Shown: positions 33,719 to 38,602, counted from the first letter of the stretch. The stretch: DNA of 64,000 nucleotides from Patescibacteria group bacterium (GCA_041645165.1 JBAZQN010000006.1:4933-68932); one strand, 5' to 3'. Notes: generated by a model not told the origin, from the sequence alone. Numbers and translations: made by a program.

Positions 33719-33904
33719 TTACCACGATGATTTCCTGACACCGGGGACCTGGCCGGCGTTCGCAAGCTCCCTGAAACATATGCGGCAAAGCTCAAAATCG
33801 CGCATATAACCGCGGTGTCTTCCGCAACGCCAGCATCGGTTCACGATACGCGTCGAAAACTTTGGTTTCCTCTTTGATTTTTCCTGCTGTGCTTCAGTAG
33901 CCAT
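33719..33904 (-). CDS. rpsN: 30S ribosomal protein S14 type Z (zinc-binding)
   Basis: 61 aa with [20 protein letters not shown]. Confidence 0.85.
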
Positions 33905-34010
33905 ACCCGCCTAAATTTTGCACCAGTCTGGTGCACTTAATTTCTTAATAACGATTACTCGACCTATTGTATCTCACTATTGTTCCTGCCCGCAAAACTT
34001 AGGCGGGCAT
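33902..34010 (-). repeat. family B TIR element copy B1 (109 bp) abutting the rpsN start
   Basis: CATacccgcctaaattttgcaccagtctggtgca…cccgcaaaacttaggcgggCATa. Terminal CAT is the rpsN ATG. CAT flanks both ends. Confidence 0.75.
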
Positions 34011-34015
34011 ACTCT

Positions 34016-34558
34016 TTATTTCTCCTGCTGGAATGGGAACCCCAACAACTTAAAGAATACAAATCCCTCATCTCTTGTCCTCGCCGTACAATGGATGCTC
34101 ACTTCAAGCCCATGGATCCGTTCCACTTCATCTGGGCGTATTTCCGGAAATGCGAGGTGCTCACGGAATCCTATCGTAAGATTGCCGGATTGGTCAACTG
34201 CCGATGCGGGAAGGCCGCGAAAATCATGAATACGCGGCAAAGCGACTGATATAAGCTTATAGAGAAAATCTTCCATGCGTTTCCCTCTCAAGGTAACCTT
34301 GGCGCCCACGGTTTGCCCCTCCCGTATTTTGAATGCCGCGATTGATTTCTTCGCCTTGGTCCATACCGGCTTCTGCCCGGTGATCCTCGTAAGCGTGTCT
34401 GCGACAGTATTGACATGCTTTTCATCGCTCTTGTTGCGTCCAATACCCACATTCAAACTTACCTTCATAATGCGCGGCACCGCAAGCGCGTTCGCATAGC
34501 CAAACTGTTTCATCATTTCAGGGAGTACTTTTTGCTGATAATGCTCTTGAAAGGTCAT
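34016..34558 (-). CDS. rplE: 50S ribosomal protein L5
   Basis: MTFQEHYQQKVLPEMMKQFGY…. Confidence 0.9.
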   Translation of the reverse strand: MTFQEHYQQKVLPEMMKQFGYANALAVPRIMKVSLNVGIGRNKSDEKHVNTVADTLTRITGQKPVWTKAKKSIAAFKIREGQTVGAKVTLRGKRMEDFLYKLISVALPRIHDFRGLPASAVDQSGNLTIGFREHLAFPEIRPDEVERIHGLEVSIHCTARTRDEGFVFFKLLGFPFQQEK

Positions 34559-34663
34559 ACCCGCCTAAATTTTGCACCAGTCTGGTGCGATTAACTTCTT
34601 AATAACGATTACTCGACCTATTGTATCTCACTATTGTCCTGCCCGCAAAACTTAGGCGAGCAT
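34556..34663 (-). repeat. family B TIR element copy B2 abutting the rplE start
   Basis: catacccgcctaaattttgcaccagtctggtgcgattaacttc…cccgcaaaacttaggcgagcat. Confidence 0.75.
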
Positions 34664-34675
34664 ACTCCTTATTGT

Positions 34676-34984
34676 TTATATAAACGTTGCTTTGCATTTC
34701 TTGCATTGGCGTTTCTTCACCCCATCTTGGCCTAAAATCTTCCCGAGCCGGCTTAAAGCGCTACAGGAGGGGCACACCACTATGACATTAGATACCGCGA
34801 TCGGGGCGGGATAAAGTATGCGCTGCCCCTTATTGCTCCCCCGCGCGCGAAGATGCTTGGACCTTGTATTCAATCCCTCTACCACCACAAGGCGCTCTTC
34901 GGGGAATACTTGCAGAACCTTCCCTGTTTTGCCTTTATCCTTCCCGCTCATGACCTTTACATTGTCATTTTTTCGAACTTTCAT
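34676..34984 (-). CDS. rplX: 50S ribosomal protein L24 with C-terminal CxxC…CxxC zinc-ribbon tail
   Basis: MKVRKNDNVKVMSGKDKGKTGKV… (KOW domain) and tail …VVCPSCSALSRLG…KKRQCKKCKATFI. Confidence 0.85.
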   Translation of the reverse strand: MKVRKNDNVKVMSGKDKGKTGKVLQVFPEERLVVVEGLNTRSKHLRARGSNKGQRILYPAPIAVSNVIVVCPSCSALSRLGKILGQDGVKKRQCKKCKATFI

Positions 34985-35215
34985 ACCCAGTATATCAACA
35001 TCCAACGCCAAACATGGCTAGGATTGTAGTATTCTCTTGCATGGTTGCGACCTTGGGGTGTTGATGCATAAATCTATGTGAAGATAACGTTTGGCGATCC
35101 GTGAGGGAGGCATGGAGATTCCTCTCAACGCTTCTACCAGAATCCTTTATATCATATGTTCTTTCTTTACTCAAAAGATTAGCCTCCCTCTTGGATGTTG
35201 TATTACTGGGCATAT
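34982..35215 (-). repeat. family A TIR element copy A3 abutting the rplX start
   Basis: catacccagtatatcaacatccaacgccaaacatgg…cgtttggcgatccgtgagggagg…cctccctcttggatgttgtattactgggcata. Confidence 0.75.
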
Positions 35216-35224
35216 TCATTTTAA

Positions 35225-35596
35225 TTACACAACTTCAGGCGCCAATGAGATTATTTTAGTAAAACCCCTTACGCGCAGTTCTCTAGCCACAGGTCCGAAA
35301 ATACGCGTCCCCTTAGGCTCCTTTGTCTTGGCATCGACAATTACCCCCGCATTGTCATCAAACCTCACATACGTGCCGTCTTTCCGCCCGATCTCCTTGC
35401 GGGTACGCACGATGACTGCGTCGTACACCTCCCCTTTCTTGACTCCCGTATGCGGTTCCGCGAGCTTCACGGACACTTTCACGATATCGCCAATAGACGC
35501 GACGCGTTTCTTGTAACCGCCTTTCACGTGAATCACCTGGAGCTTTCTCGCGCCAGAGTTATCCGCAACGTTGAGCATTGTTCTGTGTTGGACCAT
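35225..35596 (-). CDS. rplN: 50S ribosomal protein L14
   Basis: [24 protein letters not shown]…. Confidence 0.9.
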
Positions 35597-36808: not shown

Positions 36809-36890
36809 AATGCAAAATAAAGGAATTACGTGCCGCCCTGCGGCACTCCATAATTTTGATCTTTGATTTTTGATCTTTGATTTTCGTCCG
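36800..36890. repeat. family D hairpin element copy D3
   Basis: aaatgcaaaatgcaaaataaaggaattacGTGCCGCcctGCGGCACtccataattttgatctttgatttttgatctttgatttt. Confidence 0.6.
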
Positions 36891-37533
36891 TATTAAACAC
36901 TTCCCCATGGTTAACCCACACCTTCACTCCTACTGTCCCATACGTGGTCACCGCAACCGTTCTGCCAAATTCAATATCGATGCGCAAGGTGTGCATGGGG
37001 ATTTTGCCCCGCGACAAGGTTTCATTCCGTGCGATCTCAGCGCCATCAAGCCTGCCGGAGAGCTCCACTTTTGCCCCTAGGACGCCACTGGTCTTCATAA
37101 TTTGTTCCAGGGCCCTGCGCATCGTGCGGCGGAAAGGCAATCTCCGCTCAATCTCAAGCGCGATATTCTGGGCGACAATCTGCGCCGAGCCCGTAGGGTG
37201 TTCCACCTCTTTTATGGAAAGATTAAGCTTGGTGCCCTTCGTGCGTAAAAATTTCTTCTCAAGCGCCCTGCGGAGCTCTTCCGCGCCGCTCCCGCCGCGG
37301 CCAATGATGACGCCTGGTTTGCCCGTATGAAGCGTGATCGTCAGCATATTCGGATTCCGGTCGATCTCCACTTTCGCAACGCTTGCTTCACGAAGTTTCG
37401 TTTTTAAAAATTTGCGTATCTCCACATCCTGGCGGAGCAATTGCGCATAGCGGCGCCCGCGTGCGAACCACTTAGAGTCCCACGTTGATATAATGCCTAA
37501 ACGAAATGCTCTTGGATGTACCTTTTGACCCAT
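36826..37533 (-). CDS. rpsC: 30S ribosomal protein S3
   Basis: MGQKVHPRAFRLGIISTWDSKWFA… with KH domain. Confidence 0.9.
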   Translation of the reverse strand: MGQKVHPRAFRLGIISTWDSKWFARGRRYAQLLRQDVEIRKFLKTKLREASVAKVEIDRNPNMLTITLHTGKPGVIIGRGGSGAEELRRALEKKFLRTKGTKLNLSIKEVEHPTGSAQIVAQNIALEIERRLPFRRTMRRALEQIMKTSGVLGAKVELSGRLDGAEIARNETLSRGKIPMHTLRIDIEFGRTVAVTTYGTVGVKVWVNHGEVFNTDENQRSKIKDQNYGVPQGGT

Positions 37534-37544
37534 ATTTAAATGAA

Positions 37545-37660
37545 TAAACTCTAAATACTAAAATCTAAATTCCAAACAAATTCAAAATTCCAATTACAAA
37601 ATTCAAAACACGTTTGAAATTTCGGCTATTTGGTATTGTTTGGGATTTGGGATTTCATAA
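37545..37660. repeat. family E low-complexity palindromic spacer
   Basis: ctaaatactaaaatctaaattccaaacaaattcaaaattcc…cgtttgaaatttcggctatttggtattgtttgggatttgggattt. Confidence 0.55.
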
Positions 37661-37667
37661 CCTTGCA

Positions 37668-38066
37668 TTACTTAATCCTCTCTTTAACCTTTTCTTTCCC
37701 TATTGCCTCATGCTCTCCTTTACCGAGTCGTGCCACTCTCTCTCCCAACACCAAAATGACATGGCTGGTCCTGCGGAGGATGGGATTTGCGCGGCCCATC
37801 GCCCGCGGAAAAGTCCTTTTCAGTGAAGGCCCCCCGTCAACGCGTATCTCCTTCACGTAAAGATTGATAGACTCAAGGTGAAAATTATGTTTCGCGTTCG
37901 CTACACCTGATTCCACAAGCTTTTTCAAAGGCTTTGCGCTATGATGCGCATCAAACGAAAGGAGCGCAATTGCTTTAGTGGCATCGATCCCTTTTATGGT
38001 CTCAGCCACCAGCCGCACCTTCCTTGGCGCCATCCGGAGATACCTTAATTTTGCAGTGATGTCCAT
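37668..38066 (-). CDS. rplV: 50S ribosomal protein L22
   Basis: MDITAKLRYLRMAPRKVRLVAETIKG…. Confidence 0.9.
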   Translation of the reverse strand: MDITAKLRYLRMAPRKVRLVAETIKGIDATKAIALLSFDAHHSAKPLKKLVESGVANAKHNFHLESINLYVKEIRVDGGPSLKRTFPRAMGRANPILRRTSHVILVLGERVARLGKGEHEAIGKEKVKERIK

Positions 38067-38170
38067 ACCCGCCTAAATTTTGCACCAGTCTGGTGCACTT
38101 AATTTCTTAATAACGATTACTCGACCTATTGTATCTCACTATTGTTCCTGCCCGCAAAACTTAGGCGGGC
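38064..38170 (-). repeat. family B TIR element copy B3. Left TIR supplies the rplV ATG; right TIR overlaps the rpsS stop codon.
   Basis: CATacccgcctaaattttgcaccagtctggtgcacttaatttc…cccgcaaaacTTAggcgggc. TTA at 38161-38163 is the rpsS TAA. Confidence 0.75.
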
Positions 38171-38496
38171 TTTTCTTTCTCGTCAGGTTTCGTTTGTGCG
38201 ACTTCTGTCTCCGCCTGTTTCGCTTCGATCTCTCTCTGCATGCGGCCGCCATGTCGCACAAATTTGCGGGTTAGGGAAAATTCCCCCAACCGATGCCCTA
38301 CCATATTCTCCACCACGAGGACTGGCACATGGATTTTGCCGTTATGCACGCCAAACACAAAGCCAACCATTTCCGGGGTAATGACGCTCGCGCGCGCCCA
38401 TGTTTTAATAACCGTTTTATCTCCGGATTTTAATGACTTCACGCGCTGCAAGAGTTTTTGATCTATGTAAGGCCCTTTTTTAAGTGAACGTGACAT
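38161..38496 (-). CDS. rpsS: 30S ribosomal protein S19 (with short K/E-rich C-terminal tail)
   Basis: [16 protein letters not shown]…HNGK…. Confidence 0.9.
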
Positions 38497-38602
38497 ACCC
38501 GCCTAAATTTTGCACATTCTTTAAGTGCATTAATTGATTAATAATTCATTACTCGACATAGAGAATTACCATTTTAGCTACCCGCAAAACTTAGGCGGGC
38601 AT
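38494..38602 (-). repeat. family B TIR element copy B4 abutting the rpsS start (divergent interior)
   Basis: catacccgcctaaattttgcacattctttaagtgcattaattg…cccgcaaaacttaggcgggcat. Confidence 0.7.

Follow-up and report, generated by a model that had tools for sequence, protein, structure and literature searches.

The DNA analysed here is a stretch of 64,000 nt from a Patescibacteria group bacterium (GCA_041645165.1 JBAZQN010000006.1:4933-68932; hereafter the window), whose - strand carries the str/S10/spc ribosomal-protein operon of an Uhrbacteria-like member of the candidate phyla radiation (CPR). Five elements with terminal inverted repeats, here called family B, stand in this operon immediately before rpsN, rplE, rplV, rpsS and fusA and end at the start codon of each. 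We consider it probable that family B represents the non-coding members, comparable to MITEs (miniature inverted-repeat transposable elements), of a start-codon-targeting and translationally coupled class of elements in CPR/Patescibacteria. A further step, which we propose only tentatively, is that family B and a second family in the window, family A, are non-autonomous members of an undescribed class of DNA transposons, in which an Slx1-like GIY-YIG nuclease would be the transposase, would home to start codons and would be translated by means of a captured ATG. In the literature that we found, we could not find a description of elements combining a GIY-YIG gene, inverted repeats and a start-codon target.

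The arm motif CCCGCCTAARTTTTGC, allowing at most two mismatches, has 10 matches in the window, where shuffled sequences give an expectation of 0.20, and the matches form five inverted pairs. These bound four bodies of 101-102 bp (B1 to B4) and one of 206 bp (B5), with terminal inverted repeats of 16-19 bp (Table 1; body coordinates are given on the + strand, while the host genes are all on the - strand). When both flanking TATG are included, the four short copies measure ~110 bp; the five copies noticed in a first-pass annotation of this sequence are confirmed, and the lengths of ~108 and 211 bp given there had to be adjusted. On the coding strand, family B reads (gag)TATG/CCCGCCTAAGTTTTGCGGGC ... 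GTGCAAAATTTAGGCGGG/TATG-gene, and the gene-proximal end of each element is ...GCAAAATTTAGGCGGG/TATG. The ATG following the proximal arm is the true start of the gene in all five cases, because the rpsN, rplE, rplV, rpsS and fusA proteins align with their orthologues from residue 1 (an exact-protein look-up of the rplV product of the window returned no record). The repeat of the start codon, described earlier as a 3-bp ATG/CAT duplication, is present in most copies, but it comprises 4 bp (TATG), and B3 and B5 are without the distal copy. The palindrome tgcaccagtctggtgca, which had been taken to be central, turned out to be subterminal, next to the gene-proximal repeat, and subterminal hairpins are found at both ends of family B (GCCCGC...GCGGGC and GCACCAG.CTGGTGC). 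There is no difference between B1 and B3 (102/102 positions), and for B2 the match is 97/101. The sole reading frame in the body of 101-102 bp is a mini-ORF (open reading frame) of three codons; in B1 its stop lies inside the distal arm, and a native AGGAG is found upstream. In B3, the distal arm contains the rpsS stop codon TAA (38161-38163), reading ...GAA AAG CCC GCC TAA. The proposal that this copy is a stop/spacer/start cassette holds literally, and the same state (...AAG/CCC GCC TAA) has arisen independently in the rplB/rpsS element of locus L126 and the rplV/rpsC element of L218. It is a secondary state: the in-frame TAA within the distal repeat now ends the upstream gene, which has become fused to it, and stop and start are both supplied by the element.

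All 10 elements of families A, A' and B in the window adjoin the ATG of a real gene, including those of an ABC ATPase and DnaB, whose starts are backed by Pfam coverage from the N-terminus. The association with start codons was also seen in a census at the level of loci, in which 12/12 long-form B elements (from the window and L004, L006, L047, L056 and L083) adjoin the ATG of a long ORF. The hosts among these 12 sites include atpB, atpA, phosphoglycerate mutase and a 400-aa ORF, the latter a candidate pilC-like gene as read from its N-terminus only. TATG is present on both sides of B1, B2, B4 and every B copy in the five other loci, and more B-type copies occur in L121 (at rpsS and rplV) and in L218 (at rpsC); the shared termini were retained when further copies were aligned. 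The orientation does not vary among the elements of the census, and it is sense to the host gene for all window copies of family B (5/5) and family A (4/4), and for all nuclease-carrying elements described below. A T at position -1 of the start codon is found in 26/28 window genes (27172-47626), in 27/29 genes of L126 and in 17/19 genes of the element-free L219 operon, and also precedes 18/24 start codons in L121 and 10/13 in L218. TATG has the appearance of a start-codon context common to the whole lineage, of which the elements make use. No promoter-like site was found on the coding strand of family B; the subterminal palindrome scores as a terminator on the antisense strand only, and overall counts do not exceed those of shuffled sequences. 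In a search against Rfam 15 no relevant match was obtained at E<=1 for positions 30000-48000, and in the whole window only tRNAs reach the gathering score.

The history of the insertions was read from related operons. Locus L042 (Ca. Uhrbacteria RIFCSPLOWO2_02_FULL_49_11, ~90% identical DNA) was reached through the arm motif, and orthologous operons were found through S3 homologues in L121-L125 (~91% DNA identity) and L126 (~78%), as well as in L218 and L219, which are more distant. Neither L042 nor L121 has the copies of family A at rplX, rpmC and rplR. Since the empty sites of the relatives have a single CATA and the filled sites read CATA[CCC...GGG]CATA, this comparison proves that family A was inserted with a 4-bp duplication that takes in the start codon, and since the empty sites are without the repeats, these are part of the inserted unit. 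The termini CATACCC...GGG(C)ATA, which the first-pass annotation considered common to A and B, can be divided into CCC...GGG, which belongs to the elements, and CATA, which is duplicated host target. The rplX copy of family A contains a 74-codon ORF (34995-35219, - strand) running from just upstream of the distal ATG to the TGA of the proximal repeat; this is probably not a gene, and in the other A copies the same frame ends after 13 codons.

For family B, the comparison of relatives points to polymorphism. B2 is found only in the window, and L121, L042 and L126 have other elements at the rplE site. At the rpsN site, B1 is present in the window and in L042, and L121 has a different element bracketed by TATG...TATG. 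The rpsN start of L126 carries a 257-bp element (13309-13565) with B arms and TATG flanks, whose GC-rich and apparently structured interior is unrelated to family B. B3 and B4 are common to the window and L121. The rpsN copy of L042 is identical to the rplV copy of L121 (80/80), while orthologous copies differ by 3 nt, and the B copies of the two lineages differ at the same 3 positions. This indicates recent copying or gene conversion among the paralogous copies, which show concerted evolution. The B copies are 97% conserved between relatives, as compared to ~91% for the flanking genes. Spacers of 1-40 nt are found in the distant L219 operon and at most junctions of L218, and the compact operon is therefore the ancestral state.

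Relatives with coding capacity alter the picture of these elements. Full-length members are 290-315 bp long, are bounded by repeats of 16-21 bp that begin with CCC and end with GGG, stand between duplicated flanks of 3-4 bp that include ATG, and contain a single gene for a stand-alone GIY-YIG nuclease of 87-93 aa (UPF0213/Slx1 branch). In L126 the rplB-rpsS spacer, which is the same site as that of B4 in the window, contains B-type arms around an 88-aa GIY-YIG ORF. Searching with this nuclease by tblastn identified homologues at atpA in L047 and in an A-like element of the window itself at dnaB, which encloses a 93-aa GIY-YIG ORF (18437-18718). This ORF shares its frame with the upstream ATG that has been captured at 18413, and its stop codon TGA, placed 10 nt ahead of the dnaB ATG, belongs to the proximal repeat. 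When the L126 nuclease was used as query in a protein search, this and four context look-ups yielded in addition the divIC-like, methyltransferase, cupin and transfer-messenger RNA (tmRNA) sites listed in Table 1, which brings the B-end elements enclosing a GIY-YIG ORF to six independent sites, five at protein start codons and one at a tmRNA 5' end. Their layout is constant, TATG/CCCGCCTAA(A/G)TTTTTGCAC..ATG...GTGCAAAAA.T TAG GCGGG/TATG-host. The tmRNA insertion (L214 1440-1775, also in L217) follows smpB directly and occupies the 5' end of the tmRNA gene; its flanks are GGGGAT/.../GATGTAAG; the target here is the start of an RNA gene and not a protein start codon.

A metagenome scan with three nuclease proteins gave 80 loci, corresponding to 46 unique A-type insertion sites in addition to the dnaB site of the window. 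The distance between element end and nuclease ATG is exactly 21 nt at 42/46 of these sites. At 33/46 the upstream ATG is in frame with the nuclease with no stop between, at 33/46 the nuclease stop is part of the proximal repeat and is followed after 7-10 nt by the next ATG, and at 40/46 a host ORF (dnaB, murG, parA, tmk, dnaX and others) opens at the proximal ATG. The flanking tetranucleotides match exactly at 26/46 sites (TATG at 22, ATGA at two, CATG and TGGA at one each), and at 8 further sites the flanks share ATG only. The A-type and B-type nucleases are 43-50% identical; together with the common TATG duplication and the empty sites of family A, this homology supports the earlier suggestion of a shared mobilisation of the two families. 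The nuclease matches Pfam GIY-YIG (PF01541) with E 5.6e-15, and at least 64 of 65 unique sequences keep each of the residues Y4, Y6, Y17, G19, R27, H31 and E63. By sequence the nuclease matches PDB 1zg2 (UPF0213, E 3e-10), and an AlphaFold model (predicted local distance difference test score, pLDDT, 83.6) has its best fold matches in 1zg2 and the Slx1 nuclease domain, ahead of I-TevI, which is a weak match (E about 1). Judged from these residues and the model, the nuclease looks functional. The proteins consist of the catalytic domain only (87-93 aa) and score 19.9-25 bits against the NCBIfam group I intron endonuclease, for which the cutoff is 56.

The arrangement of the coding members suggests how such an element may persist at the start of a host gene. 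As transposase, the nuclease could cut and rejoin via the non-palindromic 4-nt TATG ends, or cleave in a structure-specific manner at the base of the extruded repeat hairpin, and the class would have evolved to home to the host start-codon context. The sequence shows the architecture of what may be called a translational piggy-back. The upstream ATG copy retains the host initiation region. In the A type, this captured ATG opens the nuclease ORF in frame through a stop-free leader of 21 nt, while in the B type it opens the mini-ORF ATG CCC GCC TAA, with the stop in the distal repeat and the nuclease ATG 12-22 nt further on. The stop of the nuclease ORF falls within the proximal repeat, and 6-10 nt later comes the downstream ATG copy, at which the host gene restarts. 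The nuclease would in this way be translated from the host initiation region and the ribosome handed back to the host gene by termination-reinitiation, which would leave an insertion nearly harmless even in essential and highly expressed genes. Non-coding family B copies have no nuclease gene and retain the repeats, the mini-ORF and the duplicated ATG. In the transcript, their repeats are predicted to form an RNA stem of ~21 bp with both AUGs at its base, and translation of the mini-ORF from a native ribosome-binding site, e.g. the AGGAG upstream of B1, would open this stem. We infer that the nuclease mobilises coding and non-coding copies alike, family B in trans. The joining probably occurs via TATG-specific ends, or by a recombination-like step, and not by a DDE-type staggered cut with fill-in, because TATG is non-palindromic and the orientation is invariant even for non-coding copies; DDE integration does not impose an orientation relative to the target.

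A descent of family B from the nuclease ORF was also considered. A global alignment paired the 3' half of family B with the 3' end of the L047 ORF, and this candidate was rejected. In a local-alignment shuffle test, the similarity of the B interior to B-type nuclease ORFs was not significant (z about 0-2.3), and we therefore do not claim that B arose by internal deletion; the link between family B and the nuclease rests on ends, target, position and orientation.

This lack of significant interior similarity is one of several points that weigh against our interpretation. A clean empty site was found for family A only and for no B copy among the relatives compared, and the distal flank is AAAG at B3 and TTCG at B5 in place of TATG. 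There is no B-type nuclease gene within the 64-kb window, and a GIY-YIG domain of 90 aa has no DNA-binding module. Characterised GIY-YIG enzymes leave 3' overhangs of 1-2 nt and not 4-nt staggers, and no GIY-YIG enzyme is known to be a transposase. The predicted B RNA stem has no support from covariation, because the repeats never vary. To these points should be added the occurrence of the arms outside the elements. Many CPR classes, among them Saccharibacteria, Paceibacteria, Yanofskybacteria and Sungbacteria, have multiple copies of short perfect hairpins built from the B arms (CCCGCCTAAATTTTGC, with a loop of 3-4 nt, GCAAAAyTTnGGCGGG); only 2/70 of these hairpins precede a start codon, and their flanks are palindromic and not duplicated. 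As suppliers of stop codons they favour none of the three frames (8, 5 and 11 of 70). Genes for tRNA-Pro, tRNA-Met and tRNA-Arg are bracketed, or immediately preceded, by the same 16-nt arms, as though the hairpin had the tRNA for its cargo; the arms could here be an RNA processing stem or part of a cargo-carrying element. Since the same arms form short hairpins off start codons and bracket tRNAs, the B arms may have another role, as a hairpin of the host or of REP-like type, or may originate in such a hairpin; alternatively, the hairpin may have existed first and been invaded by the nuclease genes. Carriage by phages was rejected, as the 62 matches to the arm 16-mer in viral_contigs all belong to a single conserved phage gene and are without a partner arm; viral_contigs do not contain the A-type end.

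The main rival explanation builds on these hairpins. According to this, the B arms form a hairpin that is conserved in CPR and serves the host (RNA processing, insulator, terminator or protein binding), family B consists of functional structured leaders selected at gene starts, and the loop of the hairpin received GIY-YIG genes and other cargo only later. Besides the short hairpins and the tRNA genes, the arms bracketing unrelated interiors of 240-260 nt (L075, L126), the conservation of the B copies above that of their flanking genes and the strength of the predicted 21-bp stem all agree with such a function. We nevertheless find this unlikely. The TATG duplication surrounds the long forms and not the short hairpins, which are mostly off start codons; B2 is lineage-specific; neither an Rfam match nor covariation was obtained; and family A, with unrelated repeats, has the same target, orientation and type of nuclease, and its empty sites are without repeats.

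Rather less likely still is that A and B are ordinary MITEs of a conventional transposase encoded elsewhere in the genome, e.g. a DDE enzyme making 4-bp duplications, with the GIY-YIG ORF as a passenger or an independent homing gene. Terminal inverted repeats with a 4-bp duplication are the classical DDE signature, and only 64 kb of the genome is visible. However, GIY-YIG is the sole ORF between the repeats in more than 50 independent full-length elements, with no DDE transposase gene, and none of about 200 loci showed a transposase-like ORF enclosed by CCCGCCTAAATTTTGC or CCCAGTAATACAAC repeats. The orientation is moreover invariant relative to a non-palindromic target, and the 21-nt stop-free leader locks the nuclease frame to the element end at 42/46 sites. 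The strand-specific 4-nt target, the fixed orientation, the precise empty sites, the subterminal hairpins at both B ends and the REP-like appearance of the short hairpin relatives would also fit a single-strand movement by an HUH enzyme, as in IS200/IS605 or REP/RAYT, with insertion 3' of TATG. In that case the element itself would have TATG as its 3' end, and the second TATG would not be a target duplication. This we regard as very improbable, since the flanking tetranucleotides co-vary (ATGA/ATGA, CATG/CATG, TGGA/TGGA) as a target duplication would, long terminal inverted repeats are atypical for IS200/IS605 and REP/RAYT, and none of the elements showed a Y1/HUH gene within it or beside it.

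If our interpretation of a GIY-YIG-driven, start-codon-targeting class is true, it has several implications. The known prokaryotic transposase classes are DDE, DEDD, HUH, serine, tyrosine and Cas1, and GIY-YIG would be added to these as, by our count, a sixth enzyme class. With ~290-315 bp, the coding members would be the smallest autonomous prokaryotic DNA transposons known and would set a new lower size limit. Inserting at a start codon, duplicating it, using the host initiation signal and returning the ribosomes would be an undescribed strategy of a parasite, and would explain the persistence of the elements before genes for ribosomal proteins, EF-G, DnaB and ATP synthase in tiny CPR genomes, as well as the spacers of 100-250 nt that inflate the normally compact ribosomal-protein operon of this lineage. 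It would also give the widespread stand-alone UPF0213/Slx1-like proteins a testable function. Annotators would have to place the true gene start at the second ATG. Practical interest could in addition attach to a small nuclease whose joining has a defined 4-nt specificity.

Other repeats were observed in the window. A third kind of element, found in the majority of the remaining long operon spacers (examples in Table 1), consists of a low-complexity arm rich in A (AAATCCCAAATCC...) and a T-rich arm, with a GC hairpin between them in some cases. It is also bracketed by TATG...TATG and sometimes in tandem, and L121 has one (10984-11100) exactly at the B1 site of the window. The spacers rpsG-fusA (665 nt, 45954-46618) and fusA-tuf (486 nt, 43356-43841) are unusually long and have no Rfam match; the former contains GC-rich hairpins and a purine-rich block (GGAGGGAGAGAGAAGGGGAGGATTTATTTTTTTAC) conserved in L126. 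Dispersed repeat pairs, 74-96% identical and with GC hairpins such as GCGGGATCCCGC, are found at 24195-24248/26632-26685 (54 nt), 33651-33697/40176-40222 (47 nt) and 9491-9577/31025-31111 (87 nt). At 57027-58887, a gene for a large serine recombinase of 531 aa (Resolvase, Recombinase, zinc-ribbon) is located between perfect inverted repeats of 149 nt, and the locus could be an integrated element or an assembly artefact. It was rejected as an autonomous partner of families A and B (57027-58809), as its ends are unrelated.

Table 1. Positions of the elements and related features (window positions unless a locus is named).
Feature	Position	Strand	Remarks
B1 body, 102 bp	33906-34007	-	at rpsN; distal arm 33992-34007, proximal arm 33906-33921
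B1 subterminal hairpin, palindrome tgcaccagtctggtgca, 17 nt	33919-33935	-	beside gene-proximal repeat
B1 proximal TATG	33902-33905	-	its ATG (33904-33902) is the rpsN start codon
B1 distal TATG	34008-34011	-	opens mini-ORF ATG CCC GCC TAA (34010-33999)
B2	34556-34664	-	body 34560-34660 (101 bp); rplE start; TATG on both sides
B3	38064-38169	-	body 38068-38169; proximal TATG is the rplV start; without distal TATG
B4	38494-38603	-	body 38498-38599; rpsS start; TATG on both sides; ~85% identical to B1
B5	45951-46160	-	body 45955-46160 (206 bp); proximal TATG is the fusA start; nested inverted repeat 46028-46049 / 46114-46135
Family A copy	34986-35210	-	rplX start; TATG...TATG; clean empty site with one CATA in L042/L121
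Family A copy	36145-36367	-	rpmC start; TATG...TATG; clean empty site in L042/L121
Family A copy	32181-32402	-	rplR start; TATG...TATG; missing from L042/L121
Family A copy	10583-10811	-	start of ABC-transporter ATPase gene (ATG 10581-10579)
Full-length A-like element, 312 bp	18416-18727	+	dnaB start (ATG 18729); TATG...TATG
B-type coding site, rplB/rpsS			L126; GIY-YIG ORF in B ends
B-type coding site, atpA			L047; GIY-YIG ORF in B ends
B-type coding site, divIC-like			L207/L209; GIY-YIG ORF in B ends
B-type coding site, methyltransferase			L210; GIY-YIG ORF in B ends
B-type coding site, cupin			L211; GIY-YIG ORF in B ends
B-type coding site, tmRNA			L214; GIY-YIG ORF in B ends
Short hairpin, example among L001-L120	L017 5087-5121		
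Short hairpin, example among L001-L120	L018 3945-3979		
Short hairpin, example among L001-L120	L035 317-351		
tRNA-associated arms	L012 7564-7680		
tRNA-associated arms	L117 2414-2513		
tRNA-associated arms	L104 75-161		
tRNA-associated arms	L108 2695-2783		
Third-kind spacer	47090-47200		
Third-kind spacer	37534-37667		
Third-kind spacer	35597-35700		
Third-kind spacer	33546-33718		
Third-kind spacer	32990-33125		
Third-kind spacer	30977-31182		
Serine recombinase repeats	57027-57175 / 58661-58809		tRNA 58807-58877 overlaps the 3' end

In a full-text literature search that did not extend to most subscription journals, so that a prior description is possible, no account of GIY-YIG elements with inverted repeats, of start-codon-targeting MITEs or of CPR intergenic repeats was found. 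Several known systems can in some respects be compared to the present elements. The Correia/CREE (Neisseria), RUP, ERIC and Nezha MITEs share with family B a non-coding body of ~100 bp, terminal inverted repeats and a direct duplication, and they are likewise multi-copy, lineage-specific and located within transcription units, where the repeats form a long RNA stem. Family B differs in that its target is the start codon TATG (theirs is TA or random) and its orientation is invariant, that its coding relatives have a GIY-YIG nuclease and not a DDE enzyme, and that it supplies a mini-ORF with a stop and regenerates the host ATG. The T4 Seg and I-TevI homing genes resemble the coding elements as selfish GIY-YIG genes that lie between conserved genes and are co-oriented with them. 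Homing endonucleases are larger than 200 aa, have a separate DNA-binding domain and one cognate site, and are without inverted repeats or duplication, whereas the coding elements described here encode 87-93 aa of the Slx1/UPF0213 branch, have repeats and a duplication, and are found at dozens of unrelated genes.

In size, fold and conserved residues, the element nucleases match the stand-alone UPF0213/Slx1-like proteins (PDB 1zg2, 1ywl). The bacterial stand-alone Slx1-like proteins have been treated as vertically inherited (Dunin-Horkawicz et al. 2006, PMC1564403), in an account that cites an earlier prediction of a role in double-strand-break repair and explicitly leaves open whether other GIY-YIG members are molecular parasites. 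Inverted repeats, duplications or a start-codon placement are not described for the UPF0213/Slx1-like proteins in that account (PMC1564403).

The IS200/IS605 derivatives (PATEs) and REP/RAYT have in common with our elements a tetranucleotide target, strand- and orientation-specific insertion, hairpin ends and a very small size. PATEs and REP/RAYT have no long terminal inverted repeats and no true duplication, and depend on an HUH transposase, while the elements described here have long terminal inverted repeats and a co-varying flank duplication, and no HUH ORF was found with them. The Rickettsia palindromic elements (RPE) are similar to family B as palindromic mini-elements that are tolerated in essential genes with host reading and expression preserved. 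RPEs insert in frame within the coding sequence, and the host protein includes their translation product; the present elements, in contrast, are positioned at the initiation codon and do not become part of the host protein.

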